Positions 27,548 through 64,000 of a stretch of 64,000 nt of DNA are shown here, piece after piece; the first letter of the stretch is position 1; each line of letters starts with the position of its first letter. The stretch is from positions 31,934-95,933 of IMG/VR virus record IMGVR_UViG_3300028591_000112; one strand, given 5' to 3'. Under the pieces are notes generated by a model. It was not told the origin of the DNA. It was given only the letters and a program-made list of their open reading frames with translations, and did not search any database. The stretch comes from a virus. Taxonomy: Duplodnaviria > Heunggongvirae > Uroviricota > Caudoviricetes. Both the position numbers and the translations under genes were made by a program.

Positions 27548-27624
27548 TGCTTTAAAATTTGGCAGGAAATTAATTAAAAATAACCTTGACGATAAAATTA
27601 TCATAAGTCTTAAAATTTTTAATT

Positions 27625-28115
27625 TTAGTCCCAATTTATTTCAGTTTCTATATCATGGCTATGTGCGTAACCAATGCAAATTGCATCTGCAATATCATCA
27701 TTAACATCTAAATTATAATTTTCTTTAACAAATTGAATATCTTTACTTTTTAATACTGTACGAGTTTGACCTCTGCCAGTTTTGATTCCAATTTTTGACC
27801 TCCATGAGCTAGGATAAATTAATTCTAGCTCTTGTTTTTTATTGAATTCATATAAAGTATGCGCAATTACCCCTTGTAATCACATAAGCGCTCTATGTGT
27901 TTTTAAGTTAGATGGTCCACTTTCTGGGCGCACTTCTTCCGCGATTATTTTGTCTATATCTTTATGTTTGTTTAATATATCATTAAAACCATTTTTCATA
28001 ACATCTATACGAGTAAGCAAATTAGTTGACGAAGATGTGATACAACCATAATCAACTAACAATCCATCTTGAAATACTGCTCAACCGCTAGAATGAGTAG
28101 ATAAATCTAGACTAA
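27625..28115 (-). CDS. ruvC: RuvC-like Holliday junction resolvase
   Basis: RBS agagaggtgacaagaATG. MKILSLDLSTHSSGWAVF (catalytic Asp), IIAEE, DDIADAICIGYA motifs. Reads through two TGA codons; TAA stop. Confidence 0.7.
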
Positions 28116-28179
28116 GAATTTTCATTCTTGTCACCTCTCTTTATATCTACATTATACAAAAAATTTTAATTTAACGCAA

Positions 28180-28208
28180 TAAAAAAGAAGTAGATTAACT
28201 CTACTTTT
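28180..28208 (-). terminator. rho-independent terminator overlapping the GT1 stop codon
   Basis: On the minus strand: aagtagag ttaatc tacttc tttttt. Confidence 0.45.
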
Positions 28209-29304
28209 TAAATTTTTTAACAACTTCTACAAAAGCTATATTATATTTATTATTCTCAGTTAAAGTTAACATACGGTTAAAATCAACATCTCAAGTTTCG
28301 CCAGGATTAGGCACTCTACCTAATGTTGCGTCACGAATTGATTTAGCTTTGTATGAAGGTAATGCTTTAACTGTATACATATATTCTCTGTCTTGAACAT
28401 ATGAACTTTTTCTTAATACAAATAATTCATTTCATCTATCTTTTTTAGGTATATATTTAAAATCTTTGGGGATATGATTATATATATCTTCAATAGGTAT
28501 ATTTTGCATATCAAAATCTACCATATAACAATTCTTTTTATCTTCTAATCCTATTTCATTAAATACTGGACATGGAGTAACTATTACTGGAACTCCCATA
28601 GATAAAGCCTCAACAACAGAATAACAATAGCCTTCGCTATCTGATAACTGGACTAAGTAATCAGCATTTTTTATGTATCCATTTATATCTAATCTGGGTT
28701 TCATATATACGATATTGGGATTATCAATAGCATTTGTATCAGTAGTAAATACAGTTCATAAATAAGGTATACCCGCATCATCAAGAGCTTTAGCTAATTT
28801 TATCATACGTTCTTTACCTTTTTCTCTTGATAAACGAGTGGCGGAAACGAGATTTAAAATACGCTTAGGTTCATCTAAAGCTAGTGGGTTATAGCATAAC
28901 TCACATTTTACTCCCATTAATTCAGAAAAACTTTTACAAGCCTGTTCACTTACTCCAATATATTTAGTAATTTTTCTACTAATAACAGGTCTAAAATTAG
29001 GGTTCTTTTTCATTAATGATTGATAGTCTGCATGAATTACAAAATAATAATCTTCAGCTTCAACATTATCAATAATATCCATACCATAATTGAAAAATGC
29101 TTTTTTACATTTTATTTTTTGACCTGTATATTGAATACATTTAGCATACTTTTGTAAACGTTCAAGTTGTTCTTTTTCTGCTCGTTGATATACAATAGTA
29201 ATGTCATAATCTTTATATTTTTTTATTAGATAATACAAGAAGGTTTCTGTTCCACCAATAAAATTAAGATATGAAAAATAATACATATTAGTTAATTCTA
29301 TCAT
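28201..29304 (-). CDS. glycosyltransferase family 1 (GT4-type)
   Basis: RBS ggaggagag before ATG 29304. Fragments 28756-29319 and 28432-28704 share a frame through TGA. C-terminal EGYCYSVVEALSMGVPVIVT matches the GT1 E-x7-E region. Confidence 0.65.
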
Positions 29305-29305
29305 A

Positions 29306-31219
29306 CTACTCTCCTCCATTATATATTTCTAATTTAAAATTTGGGTCTTTTTGTTGCTCTGCGGCAATCCACAAATCCGCGTATTCTCTATCATAAACTC
29401 AATTTTGTTTTCCTCCAGCTCAATGATATATTTTAAAATGAGGATGTGTTTTCGTAAAAGGAGATGAATTATATTGATTACTGATAAATAAAATATTATC
29501 TTTAAATACTGCGTTGATAGTATCTTGATCTGGATAATATAATTTATTTTCATTAACAAATTCATCTAATTCTTTAACTTTATTATCTTCTCTTATTTTT
29601 TGTAAATTAAATAAAATGACGCCACTGTTGATATAGTTATATTTATCTACAGGAATATTAGGTGTCATTAGATTAGTTTTAGCTCCTTCATCAATAATTC
29701 CCGCAGCATAATAATTAGATAAATCTATATCTCATAATTCATCTATATTATCTTTAACAATTAAATCAGTATCTAAATATAATACTTTATCTTCAGGAAT
29801 TAATAAAGCAAGATATAATCTTATTAATGACGCTTTTGAATATCCTGTATTATAATTTTCTCCATTAGGATTTAAACAATTAAGTTTATTTATATTGATA
29901 TATTCAATATTTATAAAAGGTAAATTTAATTCATCATCTTCTATAAATAGATATAATTTTCTATAATAATTATTACGAGTATAAGCATATAATCAAGTAT
30001 ATAAATATTGATAATAATTTTTAGTACATGATAATGCTATTACTTGTTTTTTATTTGACCACCAACCATATGCTATGTCTGATTGACTCCCTTCTCGAGG
30101 AAAATTATAGAAATATGGCGCAAAATCTATTCTACCTAGCTTAGGATTTCTTTTATCTCACATTTCCGCACAAAAATCATTATCTTCGCCATTTTGTCTG
30201 TCATTAAAGCGGTAGTCTCCAATAATGCGCTTAGAGAACATTGCTTGCCATACAGTACCAGAACCGAAAGCTCCTAACGGATTTGCATTACTTCTTATTT
30301 TAAATTGAATAATATCCATATCATCTGTTACCATACAATCAAGAACTAAATCAATAGCATTTTTTTCTGCCAACCAATCGTCGCCGTCAATAAACCAAAT
30401 ATAATCTGCTGCGGACGCATCCAAACCCGCGTTTCTTGCTCCTCCAGGTGAGCCGGCCGCGCACTCAATAATTTGATAATTTCAATCGCTATTGTCCATT
30501 TCTTTAATAATTATATCTTTTGTATTATCAGTGCAATTATCACAAACAAAAATAATTTTTCTTTTTGCATTAGTCTTATTTTCTTGTGCTTTTAAAGACC
30601 TTAAACAAGGTTTAATATATTTTTCTAAATTATGACATGGAATAATTATATCAACAGAAGGTGATATTGTTTTATTACTTATTTCTTGTCATTTTTCATT
30701 TAATATAGTATTTTTCTTTATATAATAAGCATAGATTTGATTTCCCATAAATAATTTTAATTCAGGGTATCTTGTTTTCATATTTTGTTTTGTTAAATCT
30801 GGTTGTTTATGAATTTCATATATATTTCCATCAACTTCTTCTTGCGGCAATTCATATGGAATTGCAACAATTATTTGTTTACATTTAGTTAATAAATATT
30901 TTAATACAGTTTTTGCTTCTAATATAGATAAATGTTCTAATACATCTCCCATAATAATTAAATCATAAGAATTATCTATTTTAAAATTTTTTATATCTTC
31001 ATTATATACATTAGTATATAATGTTTTTAAATTATGATTTTCAATGTTTGGTGCTCAAGCCTCAACAGCATCTATATTATTAAAATAACCATTTAATAAT
31101 TTTGCGTAAGTACCATTGCCCGCACCTATATCTAAAACTCTATCTGTTGGAGAAAAAGTTTCTTTTATATATTCAATTATTTGTTTTTTATAAATTGTAT
31201 AGCTTCCTGCATTATCCAT
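29306..31219 (-). CDS. three-domain enzyme: class I SAM methyltransferase + GT2 glycosyltransferase + GT8 glycosyltransferase (about 637 aa)
   Basis: RBS aaaggagaagtgtctATG at 31219. N-terminal VLDIGAGNGTYA (MTase motif I). Middle VDIIIPCHN...IIFVCDNCTDNT...FIDGDDWL (GT2 DxD). C-terminal YLDTDLIV, NSGVILFNL, HWAGGKQNW (GT8). The three parts are one frame separated only by in-frame TGA at 30689-30691 and 30155-30157; I translated the gaps and found no TAA/TAG. Confidence 0.6.
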
Positions 31220-31280
31220 AGACACTTCTCCTTTTTATTATTATAATCTAAATTTTTTATTCCATCAAAAAAGACTTAGA

Positions 31281-32714
31281 TTATTCATCTAAGTCTTTAG
31301 TTTTTTTATCTACAATATTTGCTAATAATGTTTTTATATTCACACCTAAACTATCTTCAGCTACTTTTAATACTTTGTCTATTTTTTGAGTATTGTTTTC
31401 AATTAATTTAGTAGATTGGTCACCATACATAGTAATATTATCTACATTAGCTAATGGAGCAGAAACTTCTTTTGCAACTTGTGGTAATGCAGTCATAATC
31501 ATTTCAATAACTGATGCTTCACCCATTTTCTTTTGAGCTTCAGCTTTTTTCTCAATACCTTCAGCTTCTGCTAATGCTTTAGCTTTAACACCAAATGCTT
31601 CAGCTTCAAGAATAGCTCTTTTACCTTCAGCTTCAGCAAGCAACTTAGCTTTAATACCTTCAGCCTCTCTTATGTTTGCTTCTTTCTCAGCTTCTGCACG
31701 AGCAATTCTAGCTTGTGCCTCTGCCTCTGCCGCCTTTATTGCACGAGTCTTATCAACTTCTGCTTGAACTTCTGCAGCATATTTTTCTGCATCTGCTTGT
31801 TTTTTGATTTCAGCTTCAAGTTCTTGTTCTTTTAATGAAACTTCTCTTTGCTTTAATAAAGTAATTTTTTCAGTTTTTGCAACTTGAGCATCTACTTCAT
31901 TTTCATTAATAGTTTTTTGTTGAATTGCTTTTTGAATATTATATGCGGCATCTGCATCTGCTTTTTTTCTATCTTGTTCAATTTGGAACTCCGCCTTTTT
32001 AATTGCTAGATTTTTTTGTTGTTCTGCAATTTTAGTATCTGCGGCAGCACGTGCACGCGCACCTTCTTCATCAGCAACTGCTTCCGCAATTTTAATTTCT
32101 TTATTAGCTTGTGCTTTTGCAATTTTAGCATTTTTTTGGATTTGTGCTAAATTATCAACACCTAGATTTACAATAGCATCATTCTCATCTGTTACATTTT
32201 GAACATTTAAATTTACTATTTCAAGACCTAATTTTGCTATGTCATCAGTGGCATTTTCTTGTATCTTTTGTGAAAATAATTGTTTATTATTAACTAAATC
32301 AGTTAATTTCATTTGTCCTATTATCTCACGCATATTACCTTCAAGAATTTGTTGAACATTATTTGCAATATCTTTTGTTGTTTGATTTAAGAAATGCTTA
32401 GCTGCAATTTGTATTAATTCATTATTTGTTGAAATTCTTACATTTGCAACAGCATCAACATCAACATTAATAAAATCATTTGTTGGAACTTTATTTGCTC
32501 TAACGTCTATTTGAATAAGTTTTAAAGGTATTTTATCTATTCTTTCAAAGAATGGTATTCTAAATGCGGCCTTGCCTGTAATAACTCTAGGCTCTTTCTT
32601 AATACCAGATATTAAAAATACCATATCGGGTGGGCATTTTACATAACTAACAGCAATTAAAATTCCCACTAAAATAATTACTGCTATAATAATTCCTAAT
32701 AAAATAAAACTCAT
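31281..32714 (-). CDS. SPFH/band-7 (flotillin-like) membrane protein
   Basis: Intact 477-aa ORF. N-terminal TM helix, SPFH region, then a long Ala/Glu/Lys-rich coiled coil typical of flotillin/YqiK. Confidence 0.6.
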   Translation of the reverse strand: MSFILLGIIIAVIILVGILIAVSYVKCPPDMVFLISGIKKEPRVITGKAAFRIPFFERIDKIPLKLIQIDVRANKVPTNDFINVDVDAVANVRISTNNELIQIAAKHFLNQTTKDIANNVQQILEGNMREIIGQMKLTDLVNNKQLFSQKIQENATDDIAKLGLEIVNLNVQNVTDENDAIVNLGVDNLAQIQKNAKIAKAQANKEIKIAEAVADEEGARARAAADTKIAEQQKNLAIKKAEFQIEQDRKKADADAAYNIQKAIQQKTINENEVDAQVAKTEKITLLKQREVSLKEQELEAEIKKQADAEKYAAEVQAEVDKTRAIKAAEAEAQARIARAEAEKEANIREAEGIKAKLLAEAEGKRAILEAEAFGVKAKALAEAEGIEKKAEAQKKMGEASVIEMIMTALPQVAKEVSAPLANVDNITMYGDQSTKLIENNTQKIDKVLKVAEDSLGVNIKTLLANIVDKKTKDLDE

Positions 32715-32740
32715 TTTTTAATCTCCCTTTCTTTTTTATT

Positions 32741-33190
32741 TTATTGACCAGTAGAACCAAATCCGCCTGAACCTCTTTCTGTTTCTGTTAATGAACCAGT
32801 AACTTCAAATGTAATAGGACAATAAGGAATAACTACTAATTGAGCAATACGCATTTGAGGACTTATTACTCTATCTTCAGTAGAATCGTTATGAAGAGCA
32901 ACAATTATTTCTCCTCGATAATCTGAATCAACAACGCCTACACAGTTTGCTGGACGAAGTCCTTGATTTGTAGCAATTCCACTTCTTGCAAAAATTGCTC
33001 CAAAAGTTGCTTCTGGTAATTCCATACTTAATCCAGTTGTAATTTTTCTAGTTTCTCCTGCGGGGATTGTAACGTCTTCACTTATTGCGGCATATAAATC
33101 ATAACCTGCAGCAGCATCACTTCCGTGTGTAGGTTCAACTGATTCAGGATTTAATCTTCTATATTTAACAATTGTTGTTTCTACGCCCAT
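32741..33190 (-). CDS. dut: dUTP pyrophosphatase
   Basis: dUTPase motifs GSDAAAGYDLYA, ARSG, GVVDSDYRGEI, RIAQLVV, TERGSGGFGSTG. Confidence 0.85.
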   Translation of the reverse strand: MGVETTIVKYRRLNPESVEPTHGSDAAAGYDLYAAISEDVTIPAGETRKITTGLSMELPEATFGAIFARSGIATNQGLRPANCVGVVDSDYRGEIIVALHNDSTEDRVISPQMRIAQLVVIPYCPITFEVTGSLTETERGSGGFGSTGQ

Positions 33191-33432
33191 TAAAATGCAC
33201 TCCCCTCTGTATAAACAACTTCTGTTGTGCCTTCAGGGTCTTTTTCATTAGTAAATGATTTTACTAATGTAACTTTCCACCATTCTTCTCCAGTTTTTTT
33301 ATTTTCTTTATATTGAGAAGAATGTTTTTTTAATGTGTAATATTTGCTATCTTTTGCATTTTCAATTAATTCAGTAACTTCATCCTCAGAGCTAACTCTA
33401 TATGTTTCAGAAGTTTCTAATAAATATTTCAT
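33190..33432 (-). CDS. hypothetical protein (80 aa)
   Basis: ORF with ATGA overlap onto dut. No recognisable domain. Confidence 0.35.
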   Translation of the reverse strand: MKYLLETSETYRVSSEDEVTELIENAKDSKYYTLKKHSSQYKENKKTGEEWWKVTLVKSFTNEKDPEGTTEVVYTEGSAF

Positions 33433-33453
33433 ATATAAACCTTCTTTCTTTTA

Positions 33454-33714
33454 TTATATAAACTCTATTTCAAAAGGACATTTAGTATTATATTTTGCCA
33501 TAAACATACTTTCTATTCTAGTTTTTATTTTTTCATTAAAATTTTTATTTCCTTTTAATTTTATGTTATTGCATTGGCAACTATCTCCTAATTCACAAAT
33601 TAATTCAGGAAGGTTTTTAGTTGATGTTTTTAATGTATTAACAATATTATTTCCATCAATAACATAAATATTATGAGCAAGGGTAAAATTTTTAGTTTCC
33701 GCTAAAATAAACAT
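33454..33714 (-). CDS. hypothetical protein (86 aa)
   Basis: ORF with TAA stop. Cys pairs (CELGDSCQC). Confidence 0.35.
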   Translation of the reverse strand: MFILAETKNFTLAHNIYVIDGNNIVNTLKTSTKNLPELICELGDSCQCNNIKLKGNKNFNEKIKTRIESMFMAKYNTKCPFEIEFI

Positions 33715-33726
33715 ATAATTAACCTC

Positions 33727-34179
33727 CTATAATTCAATAACAGCTTGTTCATATGGGAAGAAATAATAACAGAAACTTTCTTTATCTATTGATAACCAAA
33801 TTTCAATACCATCTTTAGCATCAGTTAATTCAATAGACTTAATAACACCTCTGTTTGGAAGAATTTCATTAATTAAAGTGGTTTGAATACGTTCACCCAT
33901 AAAACCTACGCAAATATCATAGTATTGACCTAATCTATTTACATTTCTATGAAATACAGTATAGTCTTTTCTTTCATTACATAATAACATATAATATTTA
34001 TTATTTGTATCTTTAATGAAATCTTCAACTAATTTAATCTTTTGTAAAAGTTCTTCTTCTGAAAGAGGCTCTATTTGTTGTTCTACTATTGTTTTATTTA
34101 TATCATTTAAAGTTCCCATAACAACTGTAGATTCTTTTTTCTCTTTATTCTTGTTTCTCTTGAATTTCATTGTTTTCAT
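33727..34179 (-). CDS. hypothetical protein (150 aa)
   Basis: RBS gaaaggagaa before ATG 34179. Overlaps the 3' end of def. Confidence 0.4.
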   Translation of the reverse strand: MKTMKFKRNKNKEKKESTVVMGTLNDINKTIVEQQIEPLSEEELLQKIKLVEDFIKDTNNKYYMLLCNERKDYTVFHRNVNRLGQYYDICVGFMGERIQTTLINEILPNRGVIKSIELTDAKDGIEIWLSIDKESFCYYFFPYEQAVIEL

Positions 34180-34642
34180 TTTCTCCTTTCATTTGTTCAT
34201 ATGCCATAAATAATGGACACATTCCCTCAAAATGGTCTAATTCATGTTGAACAATAAAACTCCCATTTCCACCTTCAGCATATTCAATAGCATCTCCATT
34301 TTCATTATATGCGGAAATCCATACCTTTTGGGCGCGAATACCCTCAATAAAAATGCCAGGTACAGAAAGACAACCTTCTTGCATTTTATGCTGACCTCTT
34401 GAGCGCGTAACTACCGGGTTAATTAAAATATGAATTCCATCCCAATTGATAGCGCATATACGTAAAGGAAAACCTAGCTGAATTGCAGAAAGACCTGCGC
34501 CGCCGCTATCTTTTACAGTATCAATTATATCAGTAATTAAGTTTTGAATAAATTCAGATTTAATTTCTTCTATTTTTACTTCTTTACTTTTTTGCATTAA
34601 AGTTTCTTTATCTTCGGGATATTTTAATATTTTTCTAACCAT
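34145..34642 (-). CDS. def: peptide deformylase
   Basis: GAGLSAIQLG, EGCLSVPG and HELDHFEG motifs (PDF motifs I-III). Confidence 0.8.
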   Translation of the reverse strand: MVRKILKYPEDKETLMQKSKEVKIEEIKSEFIQNLITDIIDTVKDSGGAGLSAIQLGFPLRICAINWDGIHILINPVVTRSRGQHKMQEGCLSVPGIFIEGIRAQKVWISAYNENGDAIEYAEGGNGSFIVQHELDHFEGMCPLFMAYEQMKGENENNEIQEKQE

Positions 34643-34682
34643 AGTTATTTGCCTTCTTTCTTATGTATATAAATATTATAAT

Positions 34683-35465
34683 TTATTTTTTTATTTTTTT
34701 CAAAGTATATTCATTGTACTTATTATATCTTGTATGAACATCTTTTAATTCTTCTGCAGTTCAATCTTTGGTTAGTGCATCATAAAAGCCACAAGGTGCA
34801 TATTCAGGGCAGCCTCCGCATCTAATACATTGTGGTACACAAGCCCAGAAAATATCTTCATCATATTCTCTAATTGCTTCAATAACAGATTGTCAATATG
34901 CTCTTGTAGTAGGATCCGCACATGTGCATAATCTTTTATATGAAATATTTAGTATTGCTTGAATATTAGCTTCCATTTCCATTGGAACAGTATCCATTTG
35001 GCTACGTTGACTACGGTCTTTTACTACTGTTCTATCTGCTCTTTGTGTACCAACTCATTTTTCTACTCCTTCATGATGTCTAACAAAATGAGTAGATATT
35101 GCATATGGAATTTCATCTCATTTTCAACTAATTGTTCCACGTCTAATTGGACTATGTTCACATATTAATAATTTTCTCTTTCATTCATGAGAAGGTTCTT
35201 TATCTCCTGCCTCTTTTGAAATAGTTGTCATACAGGCTGATTTAATTTTTTTTCAATTAATATTAAAATCTGTAATTCTAGTTGTTGTATTGTATTTTTT
35301 AACCGGTGCTTCTTCTGTTTCAACTTTTGCTTGACCTTCTTTAAAATTAGCTTCTATTCCAGTATATTGATTTCTATATGGGAATAAAACTGTTTCTAAT
35401 TCAGTCATATCATTAATTTCTTTTACAATTGTTTTTTCTGGTGTAATAATCTTTATTTCGTACAT
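34683..35465 (-). CDS. hypothetical protein with C-terminal cysteine cluster (about 261 aa)
   Basis: ORF 35253-35465 continues through about 8 TGA codons to TAA at 34683-34685 (I translated it in full). Contains CEHSPIRRG, FVRHHEG and C-terminal CVPQCIRCGGCPEYAPCG. No confident family. Confidence 0.35.
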
Positions 35466-35477
35466 AAAATAATTTGC

Positions 35478-36425
35478 CTACTTTCTTTTTGTTAATTTTT
35501 TGTCTCCAAATGTTTCTAGTTCTGGAGTAATTTTATATATATTTCCTTTATCATCAAAATCTACATCAACTCATCAACATGATTTATCATTTGCCAATCC
35601 CATACTGCGGCAATAAGGAGTTAAATCTTCTAAGCAGCTAGTTTGGAAACAATGAGTTTTATCTTGTTTCATATAGAAGCTTTGATGAATATGCCCTGTT
35701 TGTAAAATATCAGGTCTTTCTTCTATAGGGATAGTATCTAAATATTTTTGTAATTTATATGATTTTGCATATGCACCGCCGCCAGAACCATGAAATAATC
35801 TTATTTTTAATTTGCCAATTTTTAAATCAGCTACATCTGGGCCTAAGTAAACTATATCTTCTCTTTGTTGAGCTATTGATTTTACAATTTCACTTCCCGC
35901 GCTTTTGTACCATCAATCATCATGATTTCCTTGAATAACATAGGTTTTCCCACTAAAACTAGGATACTTATTAGCACAATAGTCTACTTGTCCTTCATAT
36001 GAAATTTCTTTTAATTCATACATTTGTTCTGGACGACTTGATTTTAACCCATCAGTAAAATCCCCTGAATGAAGGATATGTTGAATTCCTCTTGTCTCTG
36101 CTTTATCATATAAATATCTTAAAATATCTAATCTATCATATTTTGAACATAAATGCGTATCACTAATTAATAATAATCTTAAATGTTCTAAATTATATGG
36201 TAATTCATATATATCTTGATTTTGAACAGGTGTTTTTCTAATAACAACCTCTCCATTTACATAATCAATATTATAGCCATTTTCTTTCATTATCATTATT
36301 AAACCTGCAATTTCATAATCTTTTAATTCTAATTTTTCACAGATTTCAATAAAAGATTTTTTCTTTTTTGCCATGTAATAAATTTTATCACATATTTCTT
36401 TATTTTCCATATAATTCTCCTCCAA
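35478..36425 (-). CDS. calcineurin-like metallophosphoesterase
   Basis: RBS attggaggagaattatATG. LLISDTHL (DxH), GDFTD (GDxxD), GNHDD, TGHIHQS (GHxH). Continues past four TGA codons to TAG at 35478. Confidence 0.6.
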
Positions 36426-36433
36426 TAGAAAAA

Positions 36434-36470
36434 GAGGTTAAATTATTTAATTATTTATAATTTAACCTCC
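36434..36470 (-). terminator. terminator-like perfect 12-bp hairpin
   Basis: gaggttaaatta / taatttaacctc, followed on the minus strand by tttttc. Confidence 0.4.
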
Positions 36471-36476
36471 TAACTT

Positions 36477-36635
36477 TTATTTATTTCTGAATAATAATGC
36501 TGTATATAAAATTGCTGCTCCAAGCCATTGTAATGAAACAGGTCAATTTCCTTTTGTATAAATATTTACAGCTAAACTTCCACTTGCTCCTATTACCATT
36601 AAAGCTGGGAAGAATATTCTTAAAAAATTAATCAT
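36477..36635 (-). CDS. small membrane protein (52 aa)
   Basis: MINFLRIFFPALMVIGASGSLAVNIY...; overlaps the nrdG 3' end. One TGA codon. Confidence 0.3.
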
Positions 36636-53107: not shown

Positions 53108-53108
53108 A

Positions 53109-53134
53109 AAGACACTTAATTAAGTGTCTTTATT
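53109..53134 (-). terminator. rho-independent terminator after sak4
   Basis: Perfect 9-bp stem aagacactt aatt aagtgtctt followed by a T-rich run on the minus strand. Confidence 0.5.
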
Positions 53135-53135
53135 A

Positions 53136-54158: not shown

Positions 54159-54180
54159 ATTTTACTCTCCTTTATTTAAA

Positions 54181-54212
54181 AAAGCCGATTAAAATAAGAA
54201 ATCGGCTGTTTT
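54181..54212 (-). terminator. terminator-like hairpin at the 3' end of the 313-aa gene
   Basis: Minus strand aaaacagccgatt tcttatttta atcggc tttttt, overlapping the stop codon. Confidence 0.35.
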
Positions 54213-55130: not shown

Positions 55131-55204
55131 AATTTTCTCTCCTATCTTTTTATTTTTTTCAATAATTACTCATTTATCTTCTGATTTAATTATTTCTTAA
55201 TATA

Positions 55205-55233
55205 ATTATAATAAAAAATTTCAATAAAATCAA
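55205..55233 (-). promoter_or_regulatory. sigma70/sigmaA-type promoter
   Basis: Minus strand TTGATT, 17-nt spacer, TATAAT, upstream of the 313-aa gene. Confidence 0.45.
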
Positions 55234-55246
55234 TTATGAATTGCCT

Positions 55247-56152
55247 TTACTCGTTTCCTTTTTGGCTATTAAATCCAAATTGATTAGATTGATATAGGTT
55301 TATATAGAATTTTTCTTTTTCATTAAGCTCTTCTTTTTTACATTTTTCTAGTAATTCAAAAGAAAAGTTCTCTAAACCATCGCTTATCATTGATTGATAT
55401 AGTTTATTACCTGCGGGGGTGTCGATCCCTAGACCAGCTTTAGCATGGTTTTTCCAACGTGTAGCCATTTCAGTACTTTGTCCTATATAAACAAAATTAT
55501 TTAATTGATTTGTAATTTTATATATCCCGCATACTTCTGCGGTAGATGAGCCTAAAACATTTGCACACACTTGATTCATAGGTTTTTGATAATAACTTTG
55601 TCAAATTAACATACGAAGAATACGCGTGTCATTTAATTTATATTCAATATCTTTTAAAATTTTAACATCTTTTAAATCATTTTCTTTAATTTGAGGACAA
55701 TAGAAAGATTTTTTATCTTTTATTTCCTGTTCTTTTAATTGCGCTTCAAGTGCGGCCGCCCTCGTAGAGAATAATTTATCGAGGTCTTTCTCGATCAAAC
55801 CGGTTTCCGCAAGTAATTTATCTTGTCTTTTTTCATAGCTCATTTTAAGAACATTTATTGCGGTATCAAATTCTTCTTCTGCCTCTTTATATTTATTATC
55901 TAATACTTTTTGATATTGTGAAAAAGCATTTTGTGTAATTTGTTCAGTATTGTTAACTGAATTATTTAAATTTTCTATTTCTAATATTATATTATCTTTT
56001 TGTTTTTTTAAATTTTCAATTTCATTATTTAATATTTTTTGTTGATTAATTGTATTTTTATTTATTTCTATTGTTTTTATATTTTTCTTTTTTCATAAAT
56101 ATCAAAAAATTATTACTAATAATAGTAAACATATAATTATAATATCTTTCAT
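55247..56152 (-). CDS. membrane-anchored coiled-coil protein fused to a C-terminal minimal GIY-YIG nuclease domain (301 aa under code 4)
   Basis: N-terminal TM helix IIIICLLLLVIIFWYLW, then a long coiled coil. TGA at 55601-55603 in frame, then GIYKITNQLNNFVYIGQS...ATRW...EKFYINLYQSNQFGFN. I checked the frame codon by codon from 56152. Confidence 0.45.
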
Positions 56153-56164
56153 TTTTAATACCCT

Positions 56165-56205
56165 TTCAAAAAGAAAAGTTGAGTATTTCTACTCAACTTA
56201 GTTAT
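56165..56205 (-). terminator. rho-independent terminator
   Basis: Minus strand aagttgagta gaaa tactcaactt ttcttttt. Confidence 0.55.
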
Positions 56206-56210
56206 ATAAA

Positions 56211-56486
56211 TTATTCAGCGTCGTCTTCTGCGTCGATGTCTAAATCTTTACCTTCAGCAGTTAATACGATATGTTTAACTTTTTTATGAGTTCCATCTTC
56301 TAATTCAACTTCTGCTTCTTTTCTTTCCATTAAACCTTTTCTGCAGAATGCTGATGTAACGATACCATTAACTTGTCTTGGATTTAAACCAGTTGCTTCA
56401 GCGATATCAGCTGCAGTAATATCATTTCCTTCATTTTCTTTTACATAGTTATAAACTAATTTACTATTTTCACTAAATTTTGCCAT
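56211..56486 (-). CDS. small HTH DNA-binding protein with acidic C-terminal tail (91 aa)
   Basis: ITAADIAEATGLNPRQVNGIV helix-turn-helix. C-terminal DLDIDAEDDAE. Its own promoter and terminator. Confidence 0.45.
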   Translation of the reverse strand: MAKFSENSKLVYNYVKENEGNDITAADIAEATGLNPRQVNGIVTSAFCRKGLMERKEAEVELEDGTHKKVKHIVLTAEGKDLDIDAEDDAE

Positions 56487-56532
56487 ATTGTTTTTTCTCC
56501 TTTTTCTATTATTTATTTTATTTTATATGAAT

Positions 56533-56561
56533 ATTATAATTAAAAATTTGGCTCTTTTCAA
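56533..56561 (-). promoter_or_regulatory. consensus sigma70/sigmaA promoter
   Basis: Minus strand TTGAAA, 17-nt spacer, TATAAT, about 45 nt upstream of the HTH gene. Confidence 0.5.
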
Positions 56562-56616
56562 ATATATATTCTTTATTTATATATTTATTATAAACTAAAA
56601 TTTTTATATTATCAAA

Positions 56617-58533
56617 CTAACAAAACTTTAATCTAAATTCATCTTCCGTAATAATTGGTATTCCGGATTTTTTAGCGGCAATATTTTTGCTTGATTGACT
56701 ATTTATATCGTTATTTATTAAATAAGTTACTTTGCTAGATATAGAATCAACCACTTTACCACCCTTATTTTCAATATATGCTTTTAATTCATTTCTATTT
56801 TTAAATGTTAATAATTTACCTGTAATACAAAACACTTCTTTACTTAAGGTATTATCTTCTTTTTTATCATCTTTTTCTTGAATATTAAAAGCATATGATA
56901 CAACTTCATCAAGCTCTTTATAATTGAAATCTAAAAGAGCGGCGGCCATTGCTTCACCAAAACCATTATATTGTGTGAAATCAAATTTTGAATTTACCTT
57001 TTCTCTAAATTCACCATAAGTTTTAATATATTTACATAACTCTTTCGCAATAGAGCGGCCTATTAATGGGATACCAGCTGCCGCAAGGACAGCATCTAAA
57101 CTTGGATTTTTACTATTTTCTATGGCGTTCAAGATCCTCTCCACAGACTTTTCACCAAAGCCTGGTTTTGTTTTCCATTCATTTGAGAAGTTTTCTAATT
57201 TATATATATCAACAAAATTAGAAATCCAACCCCAGTTTATAAGTTTCTCGAGAGTTGCCGTTGAAAGCCCCTTAATATCTAATCCAGTTTTTCCACAAAA
57301 ATGGTCTAATCGGTTTATCAATTTACCTTGACATTGTGTATTGGTACAATATAAGGTAACTACTCCATCATTTTCATTTAGACGAGTAGCTCCGCCGCAT
57401 ATAGGACATTTATCGCATTTAAATTCAGATATTGTTAGCGGTTTTTGTTCTGCTTTTGATATTTGTGGTATTATCATATTTGATTTAAATACCCATATTT
57501 TTTGACCTTTATAAGGTTGTCCTAATAGTTCTGACATGATACTTACATTATGTAAACTTGCTCTTGAAACCTCTGTTCCGTCAATTTCAACAGGATTAAA
57601 AATAGCAACAGGTGTAAGTATACCAGTTCTACCCATACTCCATTCAATATTCTGTAAATAAGTTTCATATTCTTCATCATAAAATTTATATGCTATCCCA
57701 CCTTTAAAATGATGGTCTGTTTTTCCTGCCGCATCATAAATTCTATTTAAGTTATATTTAAAAACTACACCATCAATAGGATAATTCTTTATATCAGATT
57801 GTTCTTTTATATAACTAATAATCCAATTAATATTGGTTGAAGTATCTACAATAAAAGGGACTGTTGTAAAACCCAAAGTATCTAATAAATGTAATTCAGA
57901 TTCTAGACTAATAAACTTATTATCGTTATCAATAATATCCCATGCAATAAAAGTTAATTTTCTTTTTGAACTTTCTTTACTATCTAATAGTCTAATACTT
58001 CCTGCAGCAAAATTTCTAGGATTTTTATATTCATTTTCGAACTCTTTAAAATCTTCATAAGTACAAATAATTTCTCCATCAATAATTAATTCATCATTAT
58101 AATTTATTTTATTAGGAATATTTTTTACTTGTAAAGCATTATGTAAAATATCTTCTCCAATTTCGCCATTGCCGCGAGTTTCTGCAGAAAATAATTTACC
58201 ATTAATATATCTTAATGAACAAGTTAATCCGTCCATTTTTGCCATAGCAATATATTCTTCTTTATCACAAAAAGACGCTATTACATTTATATCTTTAGTT
58301 TTATCAAGAGATAACATAAGATGATTATGTTTTACTTTTTTTAAATCATTTACTAATTGGTAATTAATATTTTGAGTAGGACTATCTTGATAATATATAT
58401 TATATTTATTTTCTAAATTTTGTAATGTAAAATACATATTATCCCATTCACTATCTGAAATTTCTGGATGTCCTTCATCATATAGTTTAGTATAATAATT
58501 TAATTTATCAATTAAATCTCTAATCTCTTGCAT
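56617..58533 (-). CDS. ligA: NAD-dependent DNA ligase
   Basis: KMDGLTCSLRY (KxDG adenylation motif), OB fold, Zn finger CDKCPICGG, HhH and C-terminal BRCT. 638 codons without TGA. Confidence 0.8.
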   Translation of the reverse strand: MQEIRDLIDKLNYYTKLYDEGHPEISDSEWDNMYFTLQNLENKYNIYYQDSPTQNINYQLVNDLKKVKHNHLMLSLDKTKDINVIASFCDKEEYIAMAKMDGLTCSLRYINGKLFSAETRGNGEIGEDILHNALQVKNIPNKINYNDELIIDGEIICTYEDFKEFENEYKNPRNFAAGSIRLLDSKESSKRKLTFIAWDIIDNDNKFISLESELHLLDTLGFTTVPFIVDTSTNINWIISYIKEQSDIKNYPIDGVVFKYNLNRIYDAAGKTDHHFKGGIAYKFYDEEYETYLQNIEWSMGRTGILTPVAIFNPVEIDGTEVSRASLHNVSIMSELLGQPYKGQKIWVFKSNMIIPQISKAEQKPLTISEFKCDKCPICGGATRLNENDGVVTLYCTNTQCQGKLINRLDHFCGKTGLDIKGLSTATLEKLINWGWISNFVDIYKLENFSNEWKTKPGFGEKSVERILNAIENSKNPSLDAVLAAAGIPLIGRSIAKELCKYIKTYGEFREKVNSKFDFTQYNGFGEAMAAALLDFNYKELDEVVSYAFNIQEKDDKKEDNTLSKEVFCITGKLLTFKNRNELKAYIENKGGKVVDSISSKVTYLINNDINSQSSKNIAAKKSGIPIITEDEFRLKFC

Positions 58534-58549
58534 ATGTATCTCTCCCTTT

Positions 58550-58578
58550 CTTTATATATATTATAAGATAATTTTTAT
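58550..58578 (-). promoter_or_regulatory. consensus sigma70/sigmaA promoter for ligA
   Basis: Minus strand TTGCAA, 17-nt spacer, TATAAT, upstream of RBS aagggagag. Confidence 0.5.
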
Positions 58579-58599
58579 GTTATTGCAAATTTCTTTATA

Positions 58600-58631
58600 T
58601 GAAAAAAGTGTTGTTATAATTTAACAACACT
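58600..58631 (-). terminator. terminator hairpin overlapping the gyrA stop
   Basis: agtgttgtt ataattt aacaacact followed by ttttttc on the minus strand. Confidence 0.45.
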
Positions 58632-60941
58632 CTTAACATTATTTTGAATAAGTTTAACTCCAATAGTAGTTCTTCCTTGAGTATTTAATTCAGTTGCGGG
58701 GATACATATACTATTAGGAGTTCCTATTAATAATAAACTATCATCATTAGTTATTGCGGCCGCACCTGCAAGGTTAATACCTAATTTTAATCCCTTGCCT
58801 CCGCGTCCTTGTAATGAGAACTCAGATATATCACATTTTTTCCCATAACCCTCTACACTAATAAAAGCTATTTCTTTTGTATCTTTAGAGATAGGAATTC
58901 CGCAAACAACCTCATCATCACTAGCTAAATTAATACTTTTTACTCCACTAGTTACTCTACCTATTGCCGCAATATCTTTAGTAGTAAATCTTATGCTCAT
59001 ACCATTTTTAGTACAAACTAAACATTCTTCGTCCTTCATAAATAAAACATTAGCAATACTATCGCCATCTTTTAATTTAATAGCTTGAGTTCCTGTAGAT
59101 TTTTTAATTGATTTATATTCACTTAATAAAGTCTTTTTAAATAAACCTTGTTTTGTTATAAATACTACATAATCAGCATCTAAATCTCTGTCCATACTTG
59201 CGGCAGCAATAATTTTTTCATTTGGTTCCATGCTAATTAAACTAGCTAAATTTTGTCCTTTTGATACATTTGTACCAATAGGTAGTTTATCAACTAATAT
59301 TTTATACATTTTACCTTTATTAGTAAACACTAATAAGTTATCAATAGTATTAGTTTTTATAGTGGCTAAAATTGCATCATCTTCAGATTTAATTCCTTTT
59401 CCGCCTCTTTTTTGAGTTCTAAAACTTGTTTTAGGAATACGTTTAACATCTCCAGTTTGAGATACCATTACAACAACATCTTCAGGGATAACTGTTGCAA
59501 TTTCTTTTTCTTCTTTTGGAACTTCAATTTGTGCTAGTTCAGTTTTTCTTTTATCTCCATATTTTTTAACTAAATCAGATAATCTTGTTCTAATTATTGA
59601 TAATTGAGCATCTTTATTGGTTAATGTATAATTATATCCATCTATATCATGTTCTAACTGGGCTTTTTCTTCATTTAATTCTATCTTTTCTAATTTCGCA
59701 AGAGAACCTAATCTCATAGCTACAATAGATTTTGCTTGGGGTTCAGTAAATTTATATTCTTTAACCAAACCTTCTTTTGCGGCAGCACTTGATTCAGACT
59801 TTTTAATAAATGTAATTATATTATCAATATCTTCCAATGCTTTAATTAATCCATTTACAATCTCTAGGCGGGCTTCCGCAGCATTTAAATCAAATTTAGT
59901 TTCTTTAATTAAACAATTAATGTTATGGTCTAAATATATTTTAATACAATCTTTTAAATTTACTTCTGTTGGAGTTTTATCTATTAAAGCAACTTGATTA
60001 TATGAAAAACTACTTTGTAAATCTGTTTTTGCAAACAATCTATTAGCTATTGCATCAGGATTAACTCCTTTTGCACATTCTACAACTATTCTTAAACCTT
60101 TTTTATTACTTTCATTTCTAATATTTACTATTTCCGCAATATCAGTTTCTGCTACTTCACCTATTTCCGCAATAAGTGCTTCTGTTGTAGTACCATAAGG
60201 AATTTCATAGAATACGATATTTTGTCCTTCAGTTTTATATTTAGCTCTAACTTTTACACTTCCATGTCCTGTTTTCATGATACTTGGAATATCATTCATA
60301 TTAATAACAATTCCGCCTGTTGGAAAATCAGGGCCAGGTAACATTGGTTCTTTACCGTCCATATAATCATATATAGCTGTTGCTACTTCTCCTAAATTAT
60401 GTGGGGCAAAATTACAAGCCATTGCAACACCAATACCTGTATTTGGATTACATAGTAAATTAGGGAATATAGCAGGTAATGTAACTGGCTCTTCTGCATC
60501 TTCAGAGTAATTAGGAATAAAATCTACATTTTGCTTTTTAATTCCTTTTAACATACCGTCTTCTGCAAGTTTAGATAACCTTGCTTCTGTATAACGCATA
60601 TGAGCAGGACCATCTCCATCAATATTTCCATTGGAACCATGGACTTCGATTAGAGGGTACCTCATAATCCAACTTTGGGAAAGACGAATCATTGCTCCAT
60701 ATATTGAACTATCTCCATGAGGATGGTACGACCCCATAACATCTCCTACAATACGAGCAGATTTTACATGTGGCTTAGAACTCCCATATCCACGTTCAAA
60801 AGCCCCCCATAATATCCTTCTAGCTACTGGCTTTAGTCCTGAGGTAGCGTCGGGTATAGCTCTGTCTTCATTTACTGCTGCGGCGTACTCAATAAAATTC
60901 TTACTTAATTCATTTATAATGTCATTAGTTTTGTTATCCAT
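58614..60941 (-). CDS. gyrA: type IIA topoisomerase subunit A (GyrA/ParC-like)
   Basis: RAIPDATSGLKPVARRIL, YHPHGDSSIYGAMIRLSQSWIMRYPL, MRYTEARL (active-site Tyr region). 775 codons without TGA. My own indexing puts the ATG at 60940 (one off from the ORF track). Confidence 0.8.
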   Translation of the reverse strand: MDNKTNDIINELSKNFIEYAAAVNEDRAIPDATSGLKPVARRILWGAFERGYGSSKPHVKSARIVGDVMGSYHPHGDSSIYGAMIRLSQSWIMRYPLIEVHGSNGNIDGDGPAHMRYTEARLSKLAEDGMLKGIKKQNVDFIPNYSEDAEEPVTLPAIFPNLLCNPNTGIGVAMACNFAPHNLGEVATAIYDYMDGKEPMLPGPDFPTGGIVINMNDIPSIMKTGHGSVKVRAKYKTEGQNIVFYEIPYGTTTEALIAEIGEVAETDIAEIVNIRNESNKKGLRIVVECAKGVNPDAIANRLFAKTDLQSSFSYNQVALIDKTPTEVNLKDCIKIYLDHNINCLIKETKFDLNAAEARLEIVNGLIKALEDIDNIITFIKKSESSAAAKEGLVKEYKFTEPQAKSIVAMRLGSLAKLEKIELNEEKAQLEHDIDGYNYTLTNKDAQLSIIRTRLSDLVKKYGDKRKTELAQIEVPKEEKEIATVIPEDVVVMVSQTGDVKRIPKTSFRTQKRGGKGIKSEDDAILATIKTNTIDNLLVFTNKGKMYKILVDKLPIGTNVSKGQNLASLISMEPNEKIIAAASMDRDLDADYVVFITKQGLFKKTLLSEYKSIKKSTGTQAIKLKDGDSIANVLFMKDEECLVCTKNGMSIRFTTKDIAAIGRVTSGVKSINLASDDEVVCGIPISKDTKEIAFISVEGYGKKCDISEFSLQGRGGKGLKLGINLAGAAAITNDDSLLLIGTPNSICIPATELNTQGRTTIGVKLIQNNVKSVVKL

Positions 60942-60942
60942 T

Positions 60943-61656
60943 ATTAAAATCCTCCTTTTCCAATAATTTATCTATTGTTATATTATTAAAATTCTTATAA
61001 GAAATTTCTATCAATTTTTTATTATTATTTATACACCATTGTTTTTTTATTTTATCTCTTTTTATTTGATTTGTCAATTTTTCTTTTGTATTTCAGCCTA
61101 TATTTAATGTTTCATAGTGTTGACTACCTTGATATTCTATTAAAATATTGTATTCAGGAAGAAAAAAATCAAACCTTAACTTAGCATTAGTTTCAGGATT
61201 AATGCAATCTTCAAAAGTTTTTTCTTTTTCAAAAATGATATTATTTTCTTTTAGAAGATTAGATATTCTTTCTTCGCCTAAAGATTTAATGCATCCACAA
61301 GAATGTGTATGTCCTCTTCTTAAATCGATACCATTTACAATGATTTGATTACCGCATTTACATTGACATAATCAAAAAACATCTTTATTAGCATTATTCT
61401 TCTTAGCTTTTTCTATAACTGTCAGCTTCCCATATACATTTCCTATTTCTTCTTTTATAAGAGATGCTCTATTTTTATCATCAGGGCATCGTGTAATTTT
61501 TTGTAAAGAATCAGATCTTACAGAATGAATCTTATCACAATTATCACAAGAGCATAACCAAAATGCTCTTTTTTGTTGATTTGTTCTGTCTATATCTAAT
61601 TTTATTACTGTCAAAGGTCCAAATTTTTGACCTGTTAAATCTTTTCTATTCGGCAT
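60943..61656 (-). CDS. free-standing endonuclease: tandem Cys-rich DNA-binding repeats + Vsr/PD-(D/E)xK-like C-terminal domain (about 237 aa)
   Basis: Two repeats (GQKFGPLTVI...FWLCSCDNC and VYGKLTVI...VFWLCQCKCG...HSCGC); the second Trp is encoded by TGA, giving an internal control for TGA = Trp. C-terminal FDFFLPEYNILIEYQGSQHY resembles the Vsr/DUF559 nuclease core. Inserted between gyrB and gyrA. Confidence 0.5.
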
Positions 61657-62218
61657 TATAAGAAGCCTCTTTACTATGAAGTTTGATGAAATCTTTACGA
61701 CTTTGAATAGCAGTCCCCATTAAATCATTAAATAATTTATCTGCGGCCGCCGCATCATCAACAGTTATTTGTTTAATAATTCTATTATCGGGATCAGTTA
61801 GTGTTTCTTCAGTTTCGTCTACGGACATTTCACCTAAACCCTTCATTCTATTAACAGTTATTTTTTTATCTCCTATTGATTTTTTAAATTCTTCTAATTC
61901 TTCATCATTTTTAATATATTTATATTCTTTACCTATTGTTACTTTATATAATGGTGGAACTCCTGCATATATATATCCATCTTCAATTAATTGAGGACAG
62001 AAATTCCATATAAAAGTATAGAACAAATTTTTAATATGCGCTCCATCAACATCAGCATCAGATTCAATAATAATTTTGCCATATCTTAAACTATCTTTAT
62101 CATAAGTAACTTGCATAGTTTTAGTATCAATATATAATCCAAAAGCATCTATCATAGTCATAATTTCCGCATTTTTTTGTATTTTATCTAAACTTGCTTT
62201 TTGTGTATTAAGTATTTT
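61646..62218 (-). CDS. gyrB: type IIA topoisomerase subunit B (GyrB-like), exon 2
   Basis: Starts KILNTQKASLDKI (completing RG|KILN). Contains GKIIIESDADVDGAHI and YAGVPPLYK. TAG at 61646. Confidence 0.7.
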   Translation of the reverse strand, partial: KILNTQKASLDKIQKNAEIMTMIDAFGLYIDTKTMQVTYDKDSLRYGKIIIESDADVDGAHIKNLFYTFIWNFCPQLIEDGYIYAGVPPLYKVTIGKEYKYIKNDEELEEFKKSIGDKKITVNRMKGLGEMSVDETEETLTDPDNRIIKQITVDDAAAADKLFNDLMGTAIQSRKDFIKLHSKEASYNAE

Positions 62219-63356
62219 CGTTTTCCCTTATATTTCTATAAGAACTGACTATCTCTTACTCTCTGAGTTTGTCATCACTCTTCTTCGAGCACTCCATTTC
62301 GAACTGCGTATCAATAGCAGCCCTACTCCCAGTCTAACCCGGGATAGTCGATACATGAGTTAATCTACATTTTTATAAGTTTCTCTTTTTATAATTGCTG
62401 CAATAGAACTTTCAGATAAATTATATTTTTCTCCTAATTCTCTATAACTAACAACTCCTTTTTTATAAGAATTTCTTATTTCTTTTACTTGGACATTAGT
62501 AAGTTTTGCATTAGTATGTCTTACCTGTTCTTTGTTTGGAATATTTCCAACAGTGACATAAGTTTGACCTAAAACTATTCTTTTAAAAGTTTGTTGATTT
62601 GAATATAAATCTTTAAAATCTTGATAAATTTCTTTTATTGGTTCTCCATCAATATATCTTTGTCTAATATCCCAAACTTGTTGATTTGTTAGTTTTGCTC
62701 GAGGATGATTTTCACTCATTAAAGATTTATTTTGTTCCCTTGTTTTTTGTCTTTTTAATTCGGTTTCTTCAGAATAAATATTTGGACTCCAGTATTGTCC
62801 ACCTTCAGTTGAATTATATCCATTTTTAAAAGTATCAAATTCTTTTATATATTTAATTTCTAAATCATCTAATTCTTTTTCTTCACATAGTTTTAATATA
62901 ATTACTTCAAAATTATCAATTCCATATTTTCTAAGAGCTTGATAAAACTTAGTATTATAATTACAATTATTTTCATTCTTATAATCTACTAAATGATGAC
63001 TTTGAAATCTTTTTCTAATATTTTTGCTTTGTCCAATATATTTTTTATTGTTTATTAAATTTACTACCATATAAATTCCACTATTAGCTGGTAGATTTTC
63101 TATATTTTTCATATTTATCTCTCCTTTGTCAATAATATATGAAAAATAGTTTTAAGTATTTATATATTTTTGTCCGTTTTTAGTATTTTAGATTAACATT
63201 TTCACACGGGATTACCTTCGCCTAAACATATTTTGACATATATGTGTAACGGTCAGGCTTCCCCGTTAGCATACATTTCTGTACACCCCACTGATAAGTG
63301 GTTAGAAGTGTAGAGGCAAATATTATTTCGGTATAGCCTTACGCTATCCTAAGTCT
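62219..63356 (-). other. group I intron interrupting gyrB at PVRG|KILN (TOPRIM)
   Basis: 5' exon ends AGAGGT (U). Intron ends ...gaaaacg (G). Core GUAUCGACUAUCCC and CAGCCCTACTCCC are identical to the nrdD intron. Carries a GIY-YIG ORF. Confidence 0.65.
62360..63112 (-). CDS. GIY-YIG homing endonuclease within the gyrB intron (250 aa)
   Basis: RBS acaaaggagagataaatATG. GIYMVVNLINNKKYIGQS...KYIKEFDTFKNGYN. TAA stop, no TGA. Confidence 0.75.
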   Translation of the reverse strand: MKNIENLPANSGIYMVVNLINNKKYIGQSKNIRKRFQSHHLVDYKNENNCNYNTKFYQALRKYGIDNFEVIILKLCEEKELDDLEIKYIKEFDTFKNGYNSTEGGQYWSPNIYSEETELKRQKTREQNKSLMSENHPRAKLTNQQVWDIRQRYIDGEPIKEIYQDFKDLYSNQQTFKRIVLGQTYVTVGNIPNKEQVRHTNAKLTNVQVKEIRNSYKKGVVSYRELGEKYNLSESSIAAIIKRETYKNVD

Positions 63357-64000
63357 ACCTCTCACTGGCATTACCGCTTGGAACTCATTATCTCTTGCTG
63401 ATTTTAAGTTTCCGCTTGCGGAATCTCCCTCTGTGATATATATTTCACATTTGTTTCTATCTTTTGAATAACAATCAGCAAGTTTACTATCAAATTTTAA
63501 TGCTTTTTCTTTTTTCTTATTAGTTTCTCTTACTCTCTCACGAGCGTTTTTAGCTGCCTCTCTAGCTTTACGAGCGGCTGCCGCCTTATCAAAAATAGTT
63601 TTAATTTCTTTTTCATTATTAACTAACCAATATTGTAAATTAGTAGCAATAATAGTAGAGAAATTGCTCATATCTAATTTAGTAACAGTTGATTTTACTT
63701 GTGCATCATATGCAACATTAGGGGCAGTCATATTAAATACTATATACATACCTTCTTGTATATCATCTCCTGTTAAATTTTCTTCTTTATCTTTTAACCA
63801 TTTTTTATCTTTAAAGAATTTATTAAATTCTCTTGTAATTATAGTTTTAACTTGCGTTATATGAGGGCCTTTCTCTGTAAGACCTGTATTTACATAAGGA
63901 ATTAATGTTAATGAATAATTAGATGTATATGTTAATACCATGTCTAATTTTTCTTTTCCTTCTGCATACTTCATGTCAAATCTATTTGATATAATTTCTT
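63357..64000 (-). CDS. gyrB: type IIA topoisomerase subunit B (GyrB-like), exon 1 (3' part; N-terminus beyond the window)
   Basis: Transducer domain LTGDDIQEGMYIVFNMTAPNVAYDAQVKS and TOPRIM start EIYITEGDSASGNLKSARDNEFQAVMPVRG. The reading frame continues upstream past 64000. Confidence 0.7.

Follow-up and report, generated by a model that had tools for sequence, protein, structure and literature searches.

The DNA described here is a 64-kb stretch of the tailed-phage record IMGVR_UViG_3300028591_000112 (positions 31,934 to 95,933; hereafter the window), in which the codon TGA appears to be read as tryptophan (Trp) and is nearly missing from one defined set of replication genes. The window has a G+C content of 28.6% and represents about half of a virulent phage genome of roughly 100-140 kb. 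It comprises two convergent gene arms, with plus-strand genes running from 27 to 27508 and minus-strand genes from 64000 down to 27625 (Table 1). The GC skew changes sign at 27509-27624, exactly at the meeting point of both arms. This flip is compatible with a terminus of replication or with transcription biased by strand, and resembles what is drawn for the Agate phages discussed below. A megablast search with 24 kb of the window found no match among 50,697 deposited phages, and no Rfam family was matched anywhere in the window at gathering thresholds.

TGA as a tryptophan codon

Open reading frames (ORFs) of at least 100 amino acids (aa) cover 96% of the window under genetic code 4, in which TGA encodes Trp, and 79% under code 11. 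In-frame TGA is present in 30 of the 50 genes, and TGAs fall inside Pfam domains, for example those of nrdG and the metallophosphatase g25. After masking the TGA positions, we aligned the window proteins to relatives' ORFs that contain no TGA. At 29 of the 39 sites that could be tested, the residue most often aligned was Trp. Trp made up 517 of the 912 residues aligned to TGA, with Phe, Leu and Tyr next. Aligned Trp residues were found opposite TGAs of g11, g13 and g14, and all four TGAs of g36 aligned to Trp in ~35-40 relatives each. These data show that full-length products of most window genes require TGA to be read as Trp. An earlier tally of ~800 aligned residues contained Gly only six times and Ser nine times. 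We thus rejected TGA as a glycine codon (code 25, as in an Absconditabacteria or Gracilibacteria host) and, with Trp so often the commonest residue, as a serine codon. The code of the window is code 4 and not code 25.

Distribution of TGA among genes and genomes

Trp is encoded 106 times by TGA and 150 times by TGG in the window (41% TGA), whereas 91% of codons in the comparison pairs for Lys, Glu, Gln, Leu (TTR) and Arg (AGR) end in A, in every gene class. A preliminary description of the window, made from its letters alone, had called TGA use bimodal, absent from early replication genes and dense in late and middle ones. Genes do differ in TGA use rather than sharing a uniform fraction (chi2 = 83, 43 degrees of freedom, permutation p = 5e-5; likelihood ratio 18 for beta-binomial overdispersion), so the unevenness stands; the early-late axis does not. 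TGA makes up 42% of Trp codons in the plus arm and 41% in the minus arm (50 TGA and 73 TGG; p = 0.9), which rejects a strand-based or simple early-versus-late split and leaves no association of TGA with strand or module as such. The contrast appeared when we took PolIII alpha (the DNA polymerase III subunit), DnaB, Sak4, the SSB-like protein g42, LigA, GyrA and GyrB as the core replication set: this set holds 3 TGA and 36 TGG, against 103 and 114 in all other genes (odds ratio 0.09, p = 8e-7). Counts for the 51-64 kb block point the same way, with 6 TGA and 29 TGG against 100 and 121 elsewhere (Fisher p = 0.0015), and its six TGAs are confined to the homing-endonuclease genes g43 and g47 and the small gene g40. 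At other codons the core genes show an A bias of 0.89-0.97, the same as elsewhere, which argues that TGG has been kept in them by purifying selection against TGA and not for lack of time. The partition is between the core replication set and everything else, not between early and late genes.

Counting gene by gene bore out much of what had been claimed. The genes said to lack TGA (gyrA, ligA, dnaB, sak4, def and the first exon of nrdD, which has 0 TGA and 2 TGG) do lack it, and in these all Trp codons are TGG. Two others named with them, the flotillin gene and the dUTPase gene dut, have no Trp codon and are uninformative, and the absence of TGA from gyrA, sak4, nrdD exon 1 and def is uninformative when taken alone because each has one or two Trp codons. 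Late genes carry 56 TGAs in 8755 codons, or ~1 per 156, within the range of 1 per 100-200 that had been proposed, although two of them, the lysin gene (0 TGA, 7 TGG) and the fibre gene g06 (1 and 13), are poor in TGA. The tail protein credited with a dozen or more TGAs has 18, and nrdG has the three assigned to it. Some middle genes are indeed rich in TGA, with counts slightly below those first given: three rather than four in the phosphoesterase gene, and seven rather than about eight in the gene for the Cys-rich protein g24. This last gene has the highest TGA bias in the window (seven of eight Trp codons), and its product had no match in Pfam or PHROGs.

IMG/VR yielded 210 relatives of DnaB, whose contigs reach 100-160 kb. 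Most relatives with at least 70% DnaB identity have in-frame TGA, and those at 60-68% identity have none at equal G+C, which indicates that recoding arose within a standard-code phage family. In each of eight recoded genomes for which both the replication and the late locus were available, the partition was stronger than in the window: core genes have 0-5 TGA and 14-36 TGG, and late genes 27-113 TGA and 13-40 TGG (p < 1e-4 for each core-late comparison). PolIII alpha orthologues have 0 TGA and 10-11 TGG in most genomes. The late genes of some relatives have reached mutational equilibrium for TGA, and one late protein of 1027 aa is encoded with 44 TGA and 3 TGG.

This late protein bears on an alternative in which TGA is decoded leakily throughout infection, with no temporal switch, and is avoided where full-length yield matters most. 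Such an account would explain why the TGA-free genes encode long, essential enzymes and why TGA is under-used genome-wide (41% against 91% expected). It sits poorly with the finding that the longest proteins carry the most TGAs: 18 in the window's 2195-aa protein, 11 in its 1206-aa protein, and 44 in the relative's late protein. Proteins of this length and TGA content imply that read-through is efficient when they are made, and we regard continuous leaky decoding as unlikely.

Standard-code and recoded genomes are closely interleaved in this family. One relative (L007) has 0 TGA and 26 TGG, although its DnaB is 84% identical to that of the window, and three others (L183, L195 and L196) are TGA-free yet share 86-87% identity with the window in g09. 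Furthermore, a cassette of tail-protein, holin, lysin and fibre genes at about 10366-20068 lacks a counterpart in relatives, whose genes at this position are unrelated. The cassette looks like a swapped module and is consistent with recent import from a phage that uses the standard code; such a swap may explain the low TGA content of the lysin gene and g06. Interleaving of genomes and the clear exchange of this cassette among relatives both favour an explanation by gene flow rather than timing, in which the conserved replication modules frequently recombine with co-circulating standard-code relatives, where TGA would be lethal, and are thereby reset to TGG time and again. Late modules are exchanged as well, however, and yet have 46-82% TGA in recoded genomes, so that gene flow would need a strong and unexplained recombination bias toward exactly the replication enzymes. 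We therefore consider it rather unlikely, and favour purifying selection within a change of code made by the phage itself.

A more distant branch (60% DnaB identity; sample 3300029305; 36-38% G+C) contains a tRNA with anticodon CUA (L139, 8587-8662), and four of its contigs (L139, L072, L074 and L076) have several long ORFs with 3-5 in-frame TAGs each. These features point to TAG recoding in this family as well.

Three genes of the window, nrdD, PolIII alpha and gyrB, are each split by a GIY-YIG endonuclease gene; gyrB is uninterrupted in the close relative L082. The nrdD and PolIII alpha inserts matched no Rfam group I intron model, even at E <= 1, and the gyrB insert had no Rfam match at gathering thresholds. 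Further minus-arm products annotated with Pfam and PHROGs include guanylate kinase and dUTPase. The flotillin/SPFH protein and the peptide deformylase are both uncommon as phage auxiliary genes.

Table 1 Features of the window, with tryptophan codons counted as TGA/TGG.
Feature	Position	Strand	TGA/TGG	Basis or remark
Late arm	27..27508	+	56/77	Code-4 ORF tiling; tape measure, tail proteins, lysis pair, fibres, baseplate-like g13 and g14
Tape measure g01	27-3647	+	11/5	
Giant tail protein g02	3756-10343	+	18/27	2195 aa
Holin g04 (Phage_holin_5_2)	12720..13022	+	1/2	Pfam PF16079
Peptidoglycan hydrolase g05	13024..14001	+	0/7	M23 peptidase and SH3 repeats; Pfam PF01551, PF08239
Convergence point of transcription arms	27509..27624	.		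GC-skew flip
Proximal minus arm	27625..40421	-		Mostly TGA-bearing; Pfam, PHROGs
RuvC-like g15		-		Proximal minus arm
Glycosyltransferase g16		-	3/0	Proximal minus arm
Glycosyltransferase g17		-	8/6	Proximal minus arm
Flotillin/SPFH-family protein	31281-32714	-		477 aa; no Trp codon
Peptide deformylase (def)	34145-34642	-	0/2	
Cys-rich g24	34683-35465	-	7/1	260 aa
Metallophosphatase g25	within 27625..40421	-	3/1	
nrdG g26	within 27625..40421	-	3/2	
nrdD	within 27625..40421	-		In two pieces
GIY-YIG gene in nrdD	38220-38990	-		
PolIII alpha	41054..46023	-		In two pieces; Pfam
PolIII alpha piece g31	41054-43285	-	2/8	
GIY-YIG gene g32	43731-44369	-	2/1	Between PolIII alpha pieces
PolIII alpha piece g33	44674-46023	-	1/6	
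Accessory replication genes	46825..50988	-		With TGA
RecD-like helicase g36		-	4/1	Accessory replication genes
RecJ-like g37		-	2/1	Accessory replication genes
Primase g38		-	1/3	Accessory replication genes
Core replication block	51006..64000	-		Nearly TGA-free; g39-g50
DnaB g39		-	0/5	Core replication block
Sak4 g41		-	0/1	Core replication block
SSB-like g42		-	0/3	Core replication block
Homing-endonuclease gene g43	55247-56152	-		Core replication block
LigA g45		-	0/8	Core replication block
GyrA g46		-	0/2	Core replication block
Homing-endonuclease gene g47	60934-61656	-		Core replication block
GyrB piece g48		-	0/1	Core replication block
GIY-YIG gene in gyrB	62360-63112	-		
GyrB piece g50		-	0/2	Core replication block

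A tRNA(UCA) with two anticodon-like arms in related phages

Recoding of TGA had been expected to come with a suppressor tRNA bearing the anticodon UCA. No tRNA lies within the window; L162 and other recoded relatives do carry a tRNA(UCA). In relatives, a tRNA cluster lies on the strand opposite to gyrB, 7-14 kb upstream of that gene. L162 (IMGVR_UViG_3300028832_000981), which is 96% identical to the window across two gyrB exon segments (813 bases), has 13 tRNAs, including tRNA(UCA) at 13002-13098 (+) and an adjoining tRNA-Trp(CCA) at 13223-13296. By synteny with this contig, the tRNA(UCA) of the window's genome would lie ~12 kb past the right end of the window. The same tRNA is present in 18 further contigs (L163-L180) and in L084 (3694-3789, -).

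The tRNA(UCA) of recoded relatives has an invariant A1-U72 pair, G73 and an encoded CCA end, which we take to be tRNA-Trp identity marks. It is 96-98 nt long, with a variable arm of 20-23 nt. In this lineage the variable arm consists of a 5-bp stem and a 7-nt loop, CUCCAAA, and reproduces the anticodon stem-loop of tRNA-Trp. The molecule thus has two tandem anticodon-like arms, that with UCA first and that with the CUCCAAA loop second. Across 16 distinct sequences, covariation supported all five helices, with 97% of cells paired and double changes in 16 pairs, values that 0 of 500 shuffles matched; in the extra arm, four of six pairs showed compensatory changes.

A long variable arm combined with a UCA anticodon is known from the selenocysteine tRNA (tRNA-Sec) and from allo-tRNAs (PMC5389517, PMC7609411), with which the relatives' tRNA also shares G73. 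It differs from both in its covariation-supported 7/5 acceptor/T-stem (not 8/5, 8/4 or 9/3), in A1-U72, in the CUCCAAA loop and in a codon that aligns with Trp. We rejected tRNA-Sec identity because the 7/5 branch of the relatives' tRNA is not of the 13-bp (8/5) bacterial Sec type. The same comparison bears on the idea that TGA stands not for Trp but for Gly or, given the long variable arm and G73, for Ser. ARAGORN labels the tRNA 'SeC', and a variable arm of this length with G73 resembles both tRNA-Ser and tRNA-Sec. The 7/5 geometry with A1-U72 and, above all, the residues aligned to TGA make a meaning other than Trp highly improbable.

We then searched IMG/VR without constraint on the variable arm (pattern GGTCTTCAAAACC N{8,36} GGTTCRA; contigs L199-L294) and found 76 distinct UCA tRNAs, 19 with a normal short variable region and 57 with a long one. 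UCCA occurs in the arm loop of 41 of the 57, on many different backbones and on contigs of up to 230 kb; the loops include CUCCAAA (15 times) and GUCCAAA (11 times), along with UUCCAAC, GUCCAUA and others. The 15 long-arm tRNAs that lack CCA look like genuine tRNA-Sec. At several loci flanking UCA tRNAs, coding coverage rises by 25-50% under code 4. In a coding-density test, the DNA around CCA-loop tRNAs tended, as expected, to be more strongly TGA-recoded than that around other UCA tRNAs, but the trend was not significant (p = 0.14), and the loci are short and tRNA-rich. Among 185,579 reference genomes, the only double-arm tRNA confirmed by ARAGORN was at 4668-4762 of L182 (JAEDHQ010000011.1, 'MAG: Bacilli bacterium MAG140', MAG denoting a metagenome-assembled genome), a 41.7-kb contig that looks phage-like (GIY-YIG, PhoH-like and dUTPase genes) and has in-frame TGAs.

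On another contig with a double-arm UCA tRNA (IMGVR_UViG_3300031998_000017), ARAGORN called a tmRNA with the tag ANKVKSLFSFNRVSFA inside the tRNA cluster (L100, 805-1213, -). A phage-borne ribosome-rescue RNA may be relevant in a lineage with recoded stop codons.

We found no description of the double-arm UCA design in the searchable full-text literature, including papers on recoded phages and on unusual tRNAs. Tryptophanyl-tRNA synthetase (TrpRS) reads the CCA anticodon of its tRNA. We tentatively suggest, as a possibility that is somewhat less than even, that this is an undescribed tRNA design in which a decoy CCA loop lets the host TrpRS charge a tRNA whose true anticodon is UCA. If functional as proposed, it would explain how TrpRS accepts a UCA anticodon and would offer a template for engineered suppressor tRNAs.

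Host, lysis genes and the change of code

The nearest cultured homologues of DnaB belong to phages of Bacillus, Staphylococcus, Enterococcus and Lactobacillus, and those of the baseplate protein g14 to Enterococcus phages. For the M23 domain of lysin g05, the best solved match is the M23 domain of phi29 gp13, with the H..D and HxH zinc-ligand motifs aligned, and from these motifs the peptidoglycan hydrolase looks intact. Its 34 homologues are all metagenomic. The 41.7-kb double-arm-tRNA contig was binned in a 'Bacilli bacterium' MAG, which hints weakly at a Bacilli host. Together, the hosts of cultured relatives, the lysin motifs, the MAG binning and the standard-code sister lineages favour a walled, standard-code Bacillota as the most likely host.

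A phage of a native code-4 host, such as a Mollicutes or another lineage that reads TGA as Trp, would also have low G+C, and its uneven TGA could reflect drift and recent gene imports. The 'Bacilli bacterium' label can cover Mollicutes-like lineages, and the TGA-poor lysin and fibre g06 in the swapped cassette would suit recent import. We compared the window with two Mycoplasma phages, MAV1 (29% G+C; TGA 77% of Trp codons, A bias 82%) and phiMFV1 (25% G+C; 87% and 88%). Both resemble the window in low G+C and in TGA read as Trp. Unlike the window, they lack a peptidoglycan-lysin context and their TGA use tracks A bias in all gene classes, replication genes included. The preliminary description had held that native code-4 organisms do not divide TGA by gene class in the way seen here. 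The window's 41% TGA against 91% A bias and its nearly TGA-free core led us to reject a native code-4 (Mollicutes) phage. Moreover, core genes are TGA-free across eight diverged genomes despite 90% A bias, and the lineage has its own tRNA(UCA), standard-code sister lineages and an intact-looking peptidoglycan hydrolase. A native code-4 host is thus very unlikely, and the earlier view of a recoded phage rather than a Mollicutes phage is supported.

We put at roughly 0.8 the probability that the phage has reassigned TGA to Trp, most likely in a walled standard-code Bacillota host, with the core replication set spared and tRNA(UCA) acting as the switch. The core replication set, being essentially TGA-free, can be produced by unmodified host machinery. 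The phage tRNA(UCA), with its tRNA-Trp identity marks, would supply TGA decoding, as suggested by its presence in close relatives, and would be charged by the host TrpRS. Once accumulated, it would outcompete release factor 2, and genes containing TGA would be translated only after this switch; these would be the structural genes along with the homing endonucleases and numerous accessory genes. Genes needed before the switch, or regardless of it, would be kept free of TGA by purifying selection.

Several observations weigh against this reading or parts of it. With no tRNA in the window, we infer the suppressor tRNA of this genome from its relatives. No release-factor (GGQHVN) motif, and no TrpRS (KMSKS) motif in a plausible context, was found in 2.9 Mb of relatives' DNA, which consists of partial genomes, and lysin g05 had no homologue among the 185,579 reference genomes. 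Small genes that lie upstream of gyrB on its own arm contain TGA in relatives (three or four in an RNase H-like gene, for example); with TGA-bearing genes at the very start of this arm, TGA use cannot be predicted from a gene's place on it. The TGA-free genes had been said to lie near consensus promoters, a claim that carries no statistical weight because sigma-70-like sites are no commoner in the window than in shuffled sequence (138 against 136.7 expected). Finally, the idea that TGA times lysis finds no support here: the lysin gene has none, and the only TGA of the holin gene is codon 90 of 100, past the membrane segments. Holin and lysin are thus readable in the standard code, which argues against lysis gating in this genome.

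Sparing of core genes from TGA recoding has already been described for recoded phages of the gut and rumen, and our finding, though correct, is a rediscovery made independently. Agate phages have ~127-kb genomes from cattle, pig and tortoise gut and read TGA as Trp; their replication machinery is in standard code and their structural genes are recoded, with suppressor tRNAs, preferential recoding of intron homing endonucleases inside early genes, bidirectional GC skew, standard-code relatives at >90% average nucleotide identity and TAG-recoded members (Borges et al., bioRxiv 10.1101/2021.08.26.457843). The window matches this description point by point, in a comparison made by description only, since the terminase lies outside the window; the window's family and Agate agree in coding pattern, in the size of their genomes and in a sample series that is habitat-like. 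In contrast to that paper's stress on recoded lysis-cassette genes, the window's holin and lysin do not depend on TGA, and the double-arm tRNA architecture of the window's relatives is not described there. Jade phages (~200 kb; bioRxiv 10.1101/2021.08.26.457843) use a suppressor tRNA to read TGA as Trp within a Firmicutes host of standard code, much as is proposed for the window's phage from the tRNA of its relatives; they also encode release factor 1 and TrpRS, for which the 2.9 Mb of relatives' DNA showed no motif. The gut phage phAss-1 ('Phassvirus', ~136 kb; PMC10607447; OQ749652.1), with a predicted Clostridia host, also recodes a stop codon with suppressor tRNAs, and g14 shares 30% identity with the baseplate protein of this phage across 97% of the length. 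It is a distant relative only, and its recoding is of TAG to Gln, not of TGA to Trp.

For the biology of these phages, our results indicate that the protected genes are specific replication enzymes rather than early genes in general, and that the lysis pair can do without gating by the recoded codon. If the proposal for its second arm is true, the decoy-loop tRNA would be a device that enables a code switch on a standard-code host. With standard-code, TGA-recoded and probably TAG-recoded members, this phage family is suited to the study of how a phage switches the code of the cell that it infects.

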